Below are positions 9,363-27,839 of a stretch of 44,935 nucleotides of DNA, in pieces. Below the pieces are notes generated by a model, which searched no databases, was not told the origin of the DNA, and saw nothing but the letters and a program-made list of their open reading frames with translations. Origin of the DNA: a virus; UHGV virus genome UHGV-0175244; one strand, written 5' to 3'. Numbering within the stretch: position 1 is the stretch's first letter; the number at the start of each line of letters is the position of its first letter. Position numbers and translations under genes: made by a program.

Positions 9363-10441
9363 CAGAACGGGTCCTCCTGTACTCTGGCTTTTTTCTTTTT
9401 CCGCGCGCCGGGGGCTTCGGGTTCAGGCAGATAAGCATCAGGTGGGCCGACACGGATTTCCGTCAGGGTGCCGTTCTGGTCCTGAGTAAACGTGACTTCC
9501 GAAACAAGCAGTTCGGTATTGTCGAAACCACAGACCGGATCAAAGACAATCACCCGCTGGTTGGGCTGCCACAGCGTACCGTTACCCTGTCGCCAGCCCT
9601 GCACCACATAGGTGGTTTCATCCGTCCGCGCCGCCCGTTGCCGGGCTTCAAAGTCAGCACGCGCAATACAGCCTGCCCCCGTAGCCTGCCCTGTCTGCCT
9701 GATATACATCGGACGGTAACGGGCAATAAATGCGTCCTCTGCGCGGGCCCGCAGCGCGGTGGTGGTGGCCTCACCGAAATCATCGTCGTTTCCGGCACGC
9801 TGCCCCGCCACCTGGTAAACAGAAAATCGCTCCCGGATACTCTTCTCCGTATCGCAGGAAAGGATGTTTTCCCCGAGTACCAGCGCAGTATGTGCCCGCG
9901 TTGAGCCAATACCGCCAATCACCAGCCTGCCGTGCGGGTCGTCGTAAGCCAGTGCCTGCTGCTGACCGAGTATTTTGTTGATTACCTCAATCACCGTTTC
10001 ACCGTGATCAGGCTGAACATCAGGAATAACACCCGACGGCGCACCGCTGTTCACCACCTCAATGCCGAAAGGCGCAGCAAGCGCCTGCGCAATCTGTACC
10101 AGCGATCGTCCGTTAAACTGTGTCGGTTCGGCTGCACAGTCAATCAGGTCAGCGGTCAGACTGCGTCCGGCAATACCGGTGCTGACCGAACGGGCATCGT
10201 AACGAACGGGCGTCGCCTCCACCCAGCCGGTGATCACCAGCTCATCACCAATCAGCACCTCCACTTTTGAACCGTTTTTAATGCGCGGCTGAAGCGTGGT
10301 AATACCCTCATCTCCCGGCCACTGGCGGGTGATCTCCACACTGAAATCCCGCGCCAGCCGTTCAATACCGGCACCGATGCGCACCGATGTCCAGCCATTC
10401 CACTCCCGGCCATTTACCCGTAGCGTGACATTGTCGTTCAT
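9362..10441 (-). CDS. Mu P (gp44)-like tail/baseplate hub protein
   Basis: 359 aa; N-terminus MNDNVTLRVNGREW... typical of this family; synteny. Confidence 0.7.
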   Translation of the reverse strand: MNDNVTLRVNGREWNGWTSVRIGAGIERLARDFSVEITRQWPGDEGITTLQPRIKNGSKVEVLIGDELVITGWVEATPVRYDARSVSTGIAGRSLTADLIDCAAEPTQFNGRSLVQIAQALAAPFGIEVVNSGAPSGVIPDVQPDHGETVIEVINKILGQQQALAYDDPHGRLVIGGIGSTRAHTALVLGENILSCDTEKSIRERFSVYQVAGQRAGNDDDFGEATTTALRARAEDAFIARYRPMYIRQTGQATGAGCIARADFEARQRAARTDETTYVVQGWRQGNGTLWQPNQRVIVFDPVCGFDNTELLVSEVTFTQDQNGTLTEIRVGPPDAYLPEPEAPGARKKKKARVQEDPF

Positions 10442-24524: not shown

Positions 24525-25043
24525 TCACTTTGGCAGTCCGGGGATCGATATTTGCGCCTGCTGCTCAAGCCTTTCGATTCTTGCTATGAGTTGCGGTTTT
24601 TTGATCCTGCCCCAGCGGTTCAGCAAGCGTCCTGACATACTGGCAACATCCTTTTCCTTCATGAACTCCAGCATTAACTCGTTGTGCTCTCTTTGGTATG
24701 AGTGAGCCATCTCCATCAGCCTGTCACGCATCCAATTAAATGCTTTGATAAACGCCTCTTTGATGGCGGCAGCTTTTTTGCCGGTAAACGACATGATGAT
24801 GTACATCGCGCCGTCTTTGGAAATTTCATATTCAACATACTGATTACCCTTGTGTTCATAGGTAACCCGCGAAAAGTTGCTGGTTAGAAATTCATCCGAA
24901 CAGTCTAGCTTTTCGATTTTCTGAATGATGTGGTGATGCTGCTTGTCGAAGTAAGCTGCTACCTTGCGGGAGGTTGTGATCACGCGATCACCAGAAACAA
25001 CCACCATGTCCCGGAAATCGAGATTAGCCAATTGATGATTCAT
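24525..25043 (-). CDS. Rha-family phage regulatory protein
   Basis: about 172 aa from internal ATG (M13 of listed ORF); Rha-like N-terminal domain. Confidence 0.7.
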   Translation of the reverse strand: MNHQLANLDFRDMVVVSGDRVITTSRKVAAYFDKQHHHIIQKIEKLDCSDEFLTSNFSRVTYEHKGNQYVEYEISKDGAMYIIMSFTGKKAAAIKEAFIKAFNWMRDRLMEMAHSYQREHNELMLEFMKEKDVASMSGRLLNRWGRIKKPQLIARIERLEQQAQISIPGLPK

Positions 25044-25192
25044 AGCGTCTTTACCTTTTAGAAAGTGAGCCTGTCTCACAGAAAAGCCGTCCCGAGATGG
25101 TCGCCACCATATACGGCAGTTCTCAGGCTCAACTTTCTGAAAGGCTCGGGTGATGTAATATGCGCGTGAGATGCGCTGTGAAATTCAGATGT

Positions 25193-25248: not shown

Positions 25249-25707
25249 TTATTTCAGGCATTGCGTCCTGATGTACTCCTGCAGGTAGTTAACCTGCGCG
25301 GTTATCCTGTCGATTCCACTTCTGAGACGGTAATAATTGAGTTCAGCATCTGCTGTAAGTCTTGGGCTTTCTCCATCGCCCATGCCGCTGGCTCTGGTCG
25401 TTGACTTTGCACAGGTGGCGGCGACTTGCAGGCGCTTACGACCAGCAGAAACATCAGCACGGAGACTTTCGATAGTCGCGTTAGCATCAGCAAGCTCCTT
25501 TGTGTATCTGGCGTCGAGTTCTGCTACATCACGTTGACGCTTCTGCATGTCAGCGATAGTGTCATTTGCCAGGCTGAGTTGCTCAGTCACTTTGTCCCGC
25601 TGCCTTTTGAACTCGGTGGCGTTGTCGTGGTAGTGGCTGGCCAGCCAGCCGAGGCTGACTATCAGGCAGATCACAACAGCGCTGATAATGGCTGCTAATC
25701 GGCTCAT
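25249..25707 (-). CDS. Rz-like i-spanin
   Basis: N-terminal TM segment then coiled-coil; start overlaps endolysin stop; contains embedded Rz1 frame. Confidence 0.75.
25302..25493 (-). CDS. Rz1-like o-spanin (lipoprotein) embedded in Rz
   Basis: +1 frame inside Rz; lipobox ...LLVVSAC followed by Pro-rich segment. Confidence 0.7.
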
Positions 25708-26213
25708 TTCTGCCCCCACAAACAAACTTCGCGCTCAATCTCGCGGCGAGTCACCAGGCCTTTCCACTGCTTGCCCTTGGCATAGGTCCAGCGGCGCAAC
25801 TGGTCACACGCCCACTTCTGGTCGCCCTGGTTGATTTTGCGCAGTAGCGTTGAAGTCTGGAAATTGCCAGCGCCGACGTTATACGCGAATGAGTAAAGCG
25901 CCCCACGCATTGTTTCGGGGATCGGCTTCTGGATGTATGGGTTAATCTGGCGGGCGACGGCGTTCAGGTCTTTACTGAGAAGCGCACGGCATTCAGCCTC
26001 GGTGTACTTCTTGCCAAGAATGATATCTTTGCCAGTATGGCCATAGCAGACAGTCCAGACGCCTACCACATCCTGATAAGGGTTGTATCGCACACCTTCA
26101 AGACCATCGTTACCGGTTGGGCCAGTGATGAGCGCAGAGGCAATGGCTATGGCGCCACCGCCGCCGGCGATCACGCCAATCAGTTTATTCCTCATTGATG
26201 GCGTCATGCTCAC
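25704..26213 (-). CDS. SAR endolysin (T4-lysozyme-like, GH24)
   Basis: 169 aa; Gly/Ala-rich N-terminal SAR segment; E...D...T catalytic spacing ([17 protein letters not shown]). Confidence 0.85.
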
Positions 26214-26524
26214 CCCTGTGTATCACTTGCGATCCGCTTCAAGGCCTCGGTTACCACTTCGGCTGAAGCCGGGCGGTTACTTCCTGGCTTAGCGGAGACA
26301 TCAGCCAGATAACTGGCCAACAGTTGCGTGCGCTTTTTCTCTTCATCCAGTCGCTCTCGCTCTTCCTTGCGCTTTGCGTAATACGTCTTGATTGTGAAGA
26401 AGGCAGAGATCAGGGCGCCAATGATGAAGACATAATCCTGCAGACTCAGGACGGAAAAGATACCAAGCAAGGCTGACCACCAGTAAGGCAGATTGTGACC
26501 ATCGGTTGGGTTCATACGTTGCAT
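26210..26524 (-). CDS. holin (two TM segments)
   Basis: 104 aa; two hydrophobic helices then highly charged C-terminus; overlaps endolysin start. Confidence 0.65.
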
Positions 26525-26719
26525 CTCTCACCTCCGATAATGTTCGGGGTGCTATCTGTAGTCAGTAAAAGGTTCAGGGCCGTCGGGCTGATTTACCAAC
26601 AAAGCGTCGAGGGTGATTCCCGCGACCCTGAAAATAAAAAAAACCGCTCAAGGCGGGAAGAAATACCAAGGGTAAAAAGTGACGGCGCGGTAGCCGTAAT
26701 GGTCCCAAGGTAGAGGGAT

Positions 26720-26794
26720 TGGAGCATCTGGCGGGGATCGAACCCGCATATTCTGGTTGGAAGCCAGACGTAATTACCAAACTACGACAGATGC
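26720..26794 (-). tRNA. phage-encoded tRNA-Gly (anticodon UCC)
   Basis: 75-nt cloverleaf folded by hand: perfect 7-bp acceptor and 5-bp T stems, T-loop TTCGATC, anticodon loop CUUCCAA, discriminator U, CCA encoded. Confidence 0.8.
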
Positions 26795-26802
26795 AATCTG
26801 GT

Positions 26803-26865
26803 TCAGGGCTCTTGCGCGGCGGGTGTCGACGTGTCGTGCAGCACGTCTCTACCCAAGAGCCCTGA
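26803..26865 (-). other. 12-bp perfect hairpin with 39-nt structured loop, followed by ACCA; immediately 5' of tRNA-Gly
   Basis: tcagggctcttg / caagagccctga arms; inner 6-bp stem gacgtg/cacgtc; not a canonical tRNA. Confidence 0.5.
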
Positions 26866-26880
26866 CCGGATCGCAGGCAT

Positions 26881-26909
26881 AAAAAAGCCCAAGGCGTTAA
26901 CCTCGGGCT
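26881..26909 (-). terminator. rho-independent terminator (tR'-like) downstream of candidate late promoter
   Basis: 9-bp stem with one mismatch, followed on minus strand by U6. Confidence 0.55.
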
Positions 26910-26958
26910 TGAATTTTTTGCTTCGGAACGACTGAACGGATTCCCAGCGTTAGGGATG

Positions 26959-26987
26959 AATCTAACCAGTTTTTCCGGAGATTGCAA
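26959..26987 (-). promoter_or_regulatory. candidate late promoter PR' (with presumed qut region)
   Basis: minus strand TTGCAA, 17-nt spacer, TAGATT; located just downstream of Q. Confidence 0.4.
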
Positions 26988-27029
26988 TAGCTATTTTCCA
27001 CAAAATTTTATTTTTATAGAAAATACTCA

Positions 27030-27839
27030 TTATTTCGTCACCCGGGAGAGAATGACATCAGCGTAGGATTCCTGTTTGTGACATTCGGATACCAGCTCCT
27101 CGAAGAAAGGTTTCAGTTGCTCATAAGCTGCCGTTTTCTTAATGTCAGCCACGGCCCTTACCCCTTCCATCACCGTCGAAAACTTCATGCGCGCATAACC
27201 TCTTCCGCTGCAGCGATCGCATACCTTCATTACCGGTAGCCCAAGGCGCTCGCTGGTCTCTTTATCCAGTACCTTTCCTTTTCCATTGCAGCGACACGAA
27301 TTGCTGATAACACCCTTTCCGTTACAGGCTGAGCATTTAACTTTGACCACTTCGCGCACTTCGCTCCAGCTCTCCCAGTGGCTTGGGCGAACTGCTCGGG
27401 ACATCTTTGCCCAAAAAGGTGGCTTGCCCCACGGATATGAGCATTTATTGGTGAATACCTGGGCCTCTGTGAAGCCAGTCCCATCGCAGCAAGTGCATTT
27501 TCTAACGCTGGCAGCACTTCGCGTGTAATCCTGGTATGCAAAAGCACACAGAACTTCGAGAACTCTTTTGCGAACGTCCTGGCTGAGTTCTGAAACGATA
27601 TTAAAGCGGATTGATAATCGCTCTGCTGATTCATAAAGTAGCTCCATTGCTCGGTCAGGTGCGCTCACCCCAATCTTTGCAAGATAGAGGTCGAAGCCGA
27701 ATCCGCACTTGGCATTTACCAGACCAAGAGCGGCCATGATGTCAGTGCCGGTTAGACCATCAGATGCAGTAGCCCGTGGCGAGTCGCTCAGCATTGGTGA
27801 TTTAGGCGCGAAATATTTGGCGATAGATTCGAGGTTCAT
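27030..27839 (-). CDS. Q: late-gene antiterminator Q (lambda Q family)
   Basis: N-terminus [39 protein letters not shown] closely recalls lambda Q; C-terminal CxxC zinc-finger region. Confidence 0.85.
   Translation of the reverse strand: MNLESIAKYFAPKSPMLSDSPRATASDGLTGTDIMAALGLVNAKCGFGFDLYLAKIGVSAPDRAMELLYESAERLSIRFNIVSELSQDVRKRVLEVLCAFAYQDYTRSAASVRKCTCCDGTGFTEAQVFTNKCSYPWGKPPFWAKMSRAVRPSHWESWSEVREVVKVKCSACNGKGVISNSCRCNGKGKVLDKETSERLGLPVMKVCDRCSGRGYARMKFSTVMEGVRAVADIKKTAAYEQLKPFFEELVSECHKQESYADVILSRVTK

Follow-up and report, generated by a model that had tools for sequence, protein, structure and literature searches.

The virus genome UHGV-0175244, analysed as one stretch of 44,935 nucleotides (nt) and called the window below, carries a hairpin module of about 83 nt in the leader of its late operon. 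The module lies between the intrinsic terminator tR′ and a gene for transfer RNA (tRNA)-Gly(UCC). There is good evidence, from sequence comparison and structural modelling, that it is a real and selected RNA hairpin on the strand of the late transcript. The setting, a late leader controlled by the antiterminator Q and provided with tRNA cargo, is textbook, and the hairpin module is a new RNA motif without an Rfam family. The reading that is tentatively favoured here is a late leader of the phi80 type in which the RNA module may act as a mimic of the tRNA acceptor stem, recognised by ribonuclease P (RNase P) and marking a processing site. The alternative, either a site for RNase III or a hairpin that only stabilises or insulates, comes close to it in likelihood.

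Structure and conservation of the hairpin module

The first-pass annotation of the window described a perfect hairpin of 12 base pairs (bp) with a 39-nt loop, then ACCA, and a tRNA 8 nt on, and all of these are in place (Table 1). The gap between the stem and the tRNA is exactly 8 nt and consists of ACCA and GATT. No other perfect inverted repeat of 12 bp with a loop of up to 60 nt exists in the window. One or more such repeats occur in 14% of simulated windows, so the inverted repeat alone is not decisive. The conservation of the module elsewhere removes the doubt about a chance origin.

The 12-bp arms of the earlier description stand, but its extent of the hairpin does not, as the predicted helix is longer and pairs the CC of ACCA. 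ViennaRNA lengthens the hairpin outward by pairing the upstream GCGAUC-C-GG with CC-A-GAUUG(C), which gives 28-30 pairs with interruptions. Both C's of ACCA are thus predicted to be paired and not free. The purine before CC is bulged in the predicted fold, and the last A of ACCA faces a C. The basal helix of the module is GCGAUC/GAUUGC, and its outermost pair uses bases 1-2 of the tRNA. It is followed inward by the C·A mismatch, GG/CC, the bulged purine, a stem of 10-12 bp, and a 3′ bulge of 7-9 nt. The apical part comprises GGU/ACC, a 3x3 internal loop, GACGUG/CACGUC, and the loop CUGCACGA. The minimum free energy fold of the module has -40.6 kcal/mol with z = -4.62, and none of 200 shuffles folds equally well (ViennaRNA).

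A covariance model of the module was built from 22 thinned copies. It finds a single copy in the window, with 104 bits and an E value of 1.5e-27, and gives 34 bits on the reverse strand. A weak match of the model at 9470-9545 on the minus strand (16.9 bits, E 0.05) is probably noise. Across the family, the 5′ strand of the stem is always 12 nt long, and the 3′ strand has either 12 nt or 11 nt plus a bulged U. The apical loop has the consensus CYGCACNA, and six of its eight bases are invariant in both clades. In the first set of copies, the apparent invariance of the loop owed something to the search pattern; copies gathered by the 5′ arm only give CYGCACNA. The 5′ arm (26854-26862, minus strand) contains GCUCUU, the boxA core bound by NusB/NusE, with a stem-loop 7 nt later. 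This likeness to a nut site is probably a coincidence; the conserved helix sequesters the core, which is located behind tR′ and not in front of it.

Pairing in the proposed register is found in 95.6% of the cells of 72 distinct copies, compared with 24-41% in slid registers. Over all alignments, the values are 95-97% in the proposed register and 20-46% in slid ones. Double-sided covariation in the 72 copies involves 4 pairs (62/500 shuffles) and is thin because these copies are about 91% identical. A thinned alignment adds copies that were gathered without selection on the interior of the module. Here, 96.7% of the cells pair (0/500 shuffles), and 8 cells are changed on both sides (0/500 shuffles), distributed over four pairs and all three helices (19/500 shuffles). 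One stem pair in an independently collected clade is A-U in 14 copies, G-C in 13, and G·U in 13, and is broken in 2.

The single-sided changes are strongly unequal, with 165 G·U cells against 17 A·C cells. Three positions have G·U in about 50% of the copies, up to 38/72. The A·C variants are spread over 12 positions, 10 of them as singletons, and never exceed 4/72 copies. Since a Watson-Crick pair can reach either kind by a single transition, the excess of G·U over A·C points to an RNA helix of the sense strand under purifying selection. The same bias makes the G/U-rich 5′ arm look more conserved than the 3′ arm.

The 3′ bulge of the module has indels of 1-4 nt, which exclude a coding role. 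A small open reading frame (ORF) in the hairpin is rejected on these indels in the 3′ half and on the lack of a Pfam match in the ORF that spans the leader (137 amino acids, 26574..26987). That ORF runs through the tRNA, and the mechanically called ORFs of the leader are implausible like it. The earlier statement that there are no protein genes between Q and holin holds only in this sense.

Rfam 15 gives no match on the hairpin, either at gathering thresholds or at E values up to 10. A module copy from a Lastavirus, searched with its flanks, has nothing in Rfam apart from tRNA. Membership in a known family of ribozymes, riboswitches, or small RNAs (sRNAs) is rejected, as the matches to isrJ, Acido-Lenti-1, MicC, and Esr41 are weak, cover the terminators only, and are far below thresholds. 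A full-text search of the literature found the sequence of the element in no paper, and the texts on RNAs of prophage late leaders contain no description of it.

The module has copies in roughly 190 sequences of phages and prophages from Klebsiella, Kluyvera, Raoultella, and E. coli. These include 42 phage records; HK620 and HK633 of E. coli and the Lastaviruses of Klebsiella are among them. In IMG/VR, one anchor pattern gave at least 120 contigs and another pattern 57 more. The module is rare in E. coli (60 of 5,426 complete genomes) and is also present in representative genomes of Klebsiella, Kluyvera, and Raoultella. One Marinobacter match and 11 IMG/VR matches to the pattern of the 5′ arm are chance matches. 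A dispersed repeat of the repetitive extragenic palindromic type or the miniature inverted-repeat transposable element type is rejected, since there is one module copy per phage.

The surroundings of the module vary on both sides. About 90% of the copies follow an intrinsic terminator directly. Such a terminator lies within 16 nt upstream in 65 of 73 distinct contexts and has 45 different sequences among them, and a T-run lies just upstream in 52 of 57 copies of the second clade. The upstream antiterminator genes differ in size and annotation and include phi80-type, lambda-Q-like, DUF1133, and other genes. Downstream, the tRNA arrays are Thr, Gly, Asn-Phe-Thr-Arg, Met/Ile-Arg, Asn-Arg, Arg, or Ser. 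The tRNA-Gly of the window follows the module in 20 other contigs. Where tRNAs are present, the distance from RCCAGATT to the first of them is 0-2 nt in most copies: 76 of 87 in the first set, and each of the 20 in the second. No tRNA is present within about 600 nt downstream in 45/132 copies of the first set and 36/56 of the second, or about 43% overall. Homology stops sharply at both ends of the module. With varied terminators and Q genes upstream and varied or absent tRNAs downstream, the module is an optional, self-contained cassette, tied neither to tRNA-Gly nor to one particular Q.

The covariance model finds no module in phi80, nor in four relatives that have tRNA-Asn directly after tR′. 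These four share the pR′-tR′ unit and carry a tRNA without the module, and together with the 43% of tRNA-less copies they show that the hairpin is not needed for tRNA expression; such a requirement is rejected.

In the Lastaviruses LASTA and ZX1 (about 60 kb; loci L135 and L136, 1380-2100), the module is not between Q and holin but follows the lysis genes and precedes tRNA-Arg and an integrase gene. A promoter-like TTGCAA-17-TATATT and a degenerate terminator lie in front of it. The module cassette thus appears to have moved between phage types. The slot of phages RothC (locus L138, 1882-2421) and RothD holds the module, tRNA-Ile, tRNA-Arg, and an annotated homing endonuclease gene, which indicates that it takes protein-coding cargo besides tRNAs. 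The same late leaders contain, at 27 related loci, a second hairpin, which is conserved, about 84 nt long, and absent from the window. It has an 18-19-bp stem, ACAACAGGTAAGAGCATTG ... CAGTGCTCTTTCCGTTGTGG, around a variable interior of 38-68 nt, and no match in Rfam. Examples are L135 (LASTA, about 1590-1700), L012, L002 (about 1300-1400), L140, and L141.

The conserved RCCA and the possible roles of the module

The proposed sequence of events starts from the homology to phi80, by which the promoter pR′ would be constitutive and transcription without Q would stop at tR′ after about 70 nt. A polymerase modified by Q would pass tR′ and transcribe first the module of about 83 nt and then tRNA-Gly(UCC). 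The fold prediction, the covariation, and the strand-specific tolerance of wobble pairs indicate that the module forms a self-contained hairpin on the strand of the late transcript, an accessory cassette directly after tR′. With its stacked 5′ strand of 12 nt and its conserved RCCA, it would mimic the acceptor stem of a tRNA. The host RNase P would cut twice, once just before U26865, where the 5′ strand of the stem starts, and once 8 nt past the stem at G26794, the first tRNA nucleotide. These cuts would sever the pR′-tR′ leader from the cargo. With a tRNA downstream, the hairpin would be released as an RNA of about 70 nt, and the cut at G26794 together with 3′ trimming would give the mature tRNA-Gly. 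With no tRNA downstream, it would stay as a protective 5′-terminal stem-loop on the late messenger RNA (mRNA).

RNase P of E. coli cleaves hairpin-loop substrates, for which the 12-bp stack of acceptor and T stems is the ruler, and GGU of the RNase P RNA pairs with the 3′ RCCA of the substrate (PMC11143913). Natural hairpin substrates of phages are phi80 M3, P4 CI, and P1/P7 C4 (PMC5499578). Of the properties of a minihelix substrate, the stacked helix of about 12 bp (PMC11143913) is present in the window as 12 perfect pairs, and RCCA directly 3′ of the helix is present as ACCA. In regard to the pairing between RCCA and the P15 loop of RNase P RNA, the CC is held by a predicted weak closure of two pairs with the GG of the 5′ flank, and this closure could open.

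RCCA is kept in 79 of 81 copies that abut a tRNA and in 58 of 64 others; for the adjoining GATTG, the corresponding counts are 79/81 and only 42/64. Of 41 copies of the second clade, 40 have a purine right after the stem, 40 and 41 retain the first and the second C, and all 41 retain the A. The A of CCA is never G, though G would close the C·A mismatch, and the facing C is changed to U in five copies. Among the other C's of the right arm that face G's, two of three drift to U, in 27/42 and 10/42 copies of the second clade. The junction ACCA-GATT-G(+1) resembles the spacers within tRNA arrays, CCA-AATTA(C)/ATTCA-G(+1). The retention of RCCA in the tRNA-abutting copies, in the others, and in the second clade somewhat strengthens the earlier suggestion of an RNase P substrate or processing signal, which is viable.

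Several points weigh against the role of RNase P. The cleavage step is only inferred. In the predicted fold, the GG of the 5′ flank pairs with the CC of RCCA, and some tRNA-less copies have a longer basal helix (CUGC/GCAG) that would bury RCCA. About half of the copies have a broken stem of 10 pairs, a bulged U, and 1 pair. With U-A at +1/+72 and G at -1, the context is not the one that RNase P prefers. A T-loop-like element was looked for at the distal end of the 12-bp stack and not found; a 3′ bulge of 7-9 nt and a further helix are there instead. RCCA is only moderately more conserved than the rest of the module (about 87-91% overall). The strict covariation statistics are modest, with pairs of double changes reaching at best 19/500 shuffles. 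The second long hairpin in the leaders of 27 relatives has no CCA and hints at a generic role as double-stranded RNA.

Such a generic double-stranded RNA element is a possible alternative. The module would be either a processing site of RNase III or an uncleaved hairpin that stabilises or insulates. The stabilising hairpin would shield the folding of the downstream tRNA or mRNA from the tR′ leader and block exonucleases, and RCCA would be conserved merely as part of the helix. The 28-30 stacked pairs with a conserved mismatch, bulge, and internal loop resemble RNase III sites of phages. The predicted pairing of CC, the lengthened basal helix of some tRNA-less copies, the CCA-less hairpin that adjoins the module in the 27 related loci, and the module's presence in copies without tRNA (about 43%) agree with this alternative. 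There is no specific pointer to RNase III. The longest unbroken helix has 10-12 bp. By the two-turn criterion of RNase III, the 28-30 pairs are broken by the mismatch, the bulge, the 7-9-nt bulge, and the 3x3 loop. A generic element also leaves unexplained why the mismatched A of CCA is never G, why the bulged base stays a purine, why CC resist the drift from C to U that is seen at two of three other C's of the right arm, and why the tRNAs dock exactly 4 nt past CCA.

It is unlikely that the module yields a trans-acting sRNA, either an antisense RNA like C4 of P1 and CI of P4 or a decoy for host factors that bind or target tRNA, that is excised and acts through the CYGCACNA loop. The six invariant loop bases, which hold also in copies gathered without selection on the loop, agree with this. 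Processed hairpin RNAs of phages with regulatory roles have precedent (PMC5499578), and in Shiga toxin (Stx) phages the upstream pR′-tR′ RNA is itself a regulatory sRNA (PMC7547250). The complementarity within the window is at chance level, with one 10-mer compared to 3.6 expected and one loop 8-mer compared to 0.69 expected, and an antisense RNA of the C4/CI type with a target in the same phage is therefore rejected. Moreover, tRNA-less copies show no obvious 3′ processing site for release, and the hairpin matches no Rfam family at E values up to 10.

A related version, which is quite unlikely, regards the module as a phage mimic of the tRNA acceptor end that is excised by RNase P and acts in trans on the tRNA machinery as a stable RNA. 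It would be a minihelix with a genuine RCCA and might serve, for example, as a decoy for host defence nucleases that attack tRNA or for CCA-modifying toxins, or might compete for the CCA-adding enzyme or for RNase P. The tRNA cargo would have been recruited secondarily.

Conservation at the level of DNA is very unlikely. The palindrome would then be a recombination linker or mosaic junction, or a protein-binding or cruciform site, by which Q/pR′ modules and cargo such as tRNAs and homing endonucleases are swapped. The sharp breaks of homology at both ends, the many terminators upstream and many cargoes downstream, the fixed position at which the tRNA arrays start, and the different genomic place of the Lastavirus cassette are in line with such a role. 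A DNA palindrome or cruciform would penalise G·U and A·C equally, and this differs from the observed G·U variants at about 50% in three positions and A·C variants at 4/72 or less. The compensatory changes that keep pairing and the 104 bits on the sense strand, compared with 34 on the opposite strand, also speak against it.

The least probable reading is the decayed second tRNA of the first-pass annotation, a remnant that once headed the array and kept its acceptor stem and CCA while the interior decayed; an acceptor-like stem of 7 bp plus five pairs, a discriminator purine, CCA, and a spacer like those within arrays recall it, but ARAGORN calls no tRNA or transfer-messenger RNA at the hairpin, the Rfam tRNA model (RF00005) has no match on it at E values up to 10, its helix is continuous and not a cloverleaf, the module is common in phages without any tRNA, and the interior is conserved and covaries as a different structure, which indicates selection of the present fold and not decay.

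The late region of the prophage

The window is a prophage that falls among temperate phages of Klebsiella by BLAST; the phage vB_Kpn_RAH1 is near-identical to it. The integrase gene, tRNA-Arg(UCU), and folD at the far end indicate that it is integrated at a host tRNA-Arg gene. The argU-type tRNA-Arg(UCU) is thus host or attachment (att) sequence and not phage cargo. The minus strand carries the whole late region, with Q, pR′, tR′, the hairpin, tRNA-Gly, and holin. By homology, the late operon of this Klebsiella-type prophage is of the phi80 type, with an untranslated leader. The sequence features that define such lambdoid leaders are present, namely an adjacent upstream Q gene, a promoter with a Q element, and an intrinsic terminator at a short distance.

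Table 1. Coordinates of the late-region features and of the integration end in the window
Feature	Position	Strand	Basis or remark
Q late antiterminator gene, 269 amino acids, phi80 gp17 type	27030..27839	minus	Pfam PF03589 Antiterm, E 6e-35
Late leader, 505 nt, between Q and holin genes	27029..26525	minus
pR′: -35 TTGCAA, 17-nt spacer, -10 TAGATT	-35 26987..26982; -10 26964..26959	minus	phi80 alignment
tR′ intrinsic terminator, 11 pairs, 4-nt loop, T6	stem 26910..26885; T6 26886..26881	minus	terminator scan
Conserved post-terminator hairpin module, about 83 nt	26794..26876	minus	fold and covariance model
Hairpin, 12 perfect pairs, 39-nt structured loop	arms 26865..26854 and 26814..26803 (26803..26865)	minus	sequence
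ACCA (family consensus RCCA), directly 3′ of stem	26802..26799	minus	then GATT 26798..26795, tRNA nucleotide 1 at 26794
tRNA-Gly(UCC), discriminator U73	26720..26794; encoded CCA 26722..26720	minus	ARAGORN and Rfam RF00005
Weak terminator-like hairpin, gap between tRNA and holin	26697..26682	minus	terminator scan
Weak terminator-like CCGC-loop-GCGG and T8, gap between tRNA and holin	26656..26636	minus	by eye; 4-bp stem below scan threshold
Holin gene, first late gene	26210..26524	minus	Pfam PF16080, below cutoff; homologues annotated holin
Lysozyme gene, after holin	26213..25704	minus	Pfam PF00959
Rz/Rz1, after lysozyme		minus	Pfam PF03245 (Rz)
Tyrosine integrase	42424..43587	plus
tRNA-Arg(UCU), argU-type	43679..43603	minus
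folD	44019..44885	plus

The Q protein has 77% identity to gp17 of phi80, which is the Q of that phage. It contains four zinc-finger repeats of the DnaJ type CXXCXGXG, common to phi80 gp17, and the Pfam match to DnaJ_CXXCXGXG is sub-threshold (E 1.9e-5). The candidate promoter TTGCAA-17-TAGATT of the earlier annotation is present and aligns with the annotated pR′ of phi80, which has a -35 of TTGCAT, a gp17(Q) binding site, and a -10 of TAGATT. In this alignment, the 17-nt spacer holds the equivalent of the Q-binding element. The promoter scores only 8/12 against the sigma-70 consensus, which is why a generic promoter scan did not list it. The tR′-like terminator is likewise borne out by a terminator scan and by alignment with the annotated terminator of phi80. 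Positions 6-149 of the leader are 85.6% identical to the phi80 leader, promoter and terminator included. The pR′-tR′ unit (26881-26952, minus strand) would yield a constitutive terminated RNA of about 70 nt in lysogens. This RNA is about 86% identical to that of phi80 and would be analogous to StxS of Stx phages. It may be the counterpart of the phi80-induced M3 RNA, an RNase P substrate.

The tRNA-Gly of the earlier annotation, at 26720-26794, is called as tRNA-Gly(UCC) by ARAGORN and is matched by the Rfam model RF00005 with 59.6 bits, against a gathering score of 29, and an E value of 1.6e-10. The identity set of the E. coli glycyl-tRNA synthetase comprises U73, G1-C72, C2-G71, G3-C70, C35, and C36. 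The tRNA has U73, G1-C72, C2-G71, C35, and C36, and its pair 3-70 is A-U, not G-C. In phi80 and HK620, a second terminator is annotated at the place equivalent to the weak hairpins of 26636..26697. A gene for a regulatory protein with Rha and ORF11CD3 domains (24525-25079, minus strand) lies directly downstream of Rz/Rz1.

Significance and comparison with known systems

The module marks precisely where the late operon takes on its varied tRNA arrays and other cargo. If it is a site of RNase P or RNase III, it would show how these phages part the constitutive pR′-tR′ leader from the late messages and bring their tRNAs to maturity, and it would add a natural substrate other than tRNA to a short list. 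It is also a useful landmark when Klebsiella prophages, often from carbapenemase-producing clinical strains, are annotated for their late promoters, terminators, and cargo slots.

The closest known leader is that of phi80. Its Q is 77% identical, the -35, Q element, -10, and terminator together are 85.6% identical with the same spacing, and it shares the short pR′-tR′ unit of about 70 nt and a second terminator before the holin gene. In contrast, phi80 has no hairpin module and no tRNA. It diverges right after the T-run of the terminator, and no homology with it was found downstream of tR′.

Stx phages carry tRNA genes as cargo between Q and the lysis genes. Their leaders are similar in that the cargo lies between tR′ and the lysis genes and is expressed by antitermination through Q. 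The earlier likening of the leader to this lambdoid cargo slot is upheld by the phi80 homology and by the varied tRNA arrays that relatives have in the same slot. In lysogens of Stx phages, the constitutive transcript from pR′ is stopped at tR′, and the pR′-tR′ RNA is the sRNA StxS (PMC7547250). Unlike the unit of the window, the pR′-tR′ unit of Stx phages is 258 nt long and is cut by RNase E, and no similar hairpin is described in it.

The hairpin substrates of RNase P, namely the 4.5S RNA precursor of E. coli, phi80 M3, P1/P7 C4, P4 CI, and synthetic minihelices of acceptor and T stem, have a stacked helix of about 12 pairs and a 3′ RCCA like the module. Several of them are also of phage origin, and the module transcript must in any case be cut by RNase P at the adjoining tRNA. 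The module differs in having no detectable sequence or Rfam homology to them and no antisense target. Its RCCA is partly paired with the leader, and it has no equivalent of the T-loop.

The RNase III hairpins of phages, such as those of the T7 early region, the lambda N-leader, and sib, are long, imperfect, conserved, and untranslated, and they lie beside a terminator like the module. However, the module lacks an uninterrupted helix of about 20 bp, and conservation of RCCA and of the loop is not a trait of RNase III sites.

The species 1 and 2 RNAs of T4 are small stable RNAs that are co-transcribed with the tRNA cluster of the phage. They belong to an unrelated phage group and are unrelated in sequence, and the module, unlike them, also exists without tRNA. 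Like the module, they are structured non-tRNA RNAs at the edge of a tRNA array, presumably matured by the tRNA-processing machinery.

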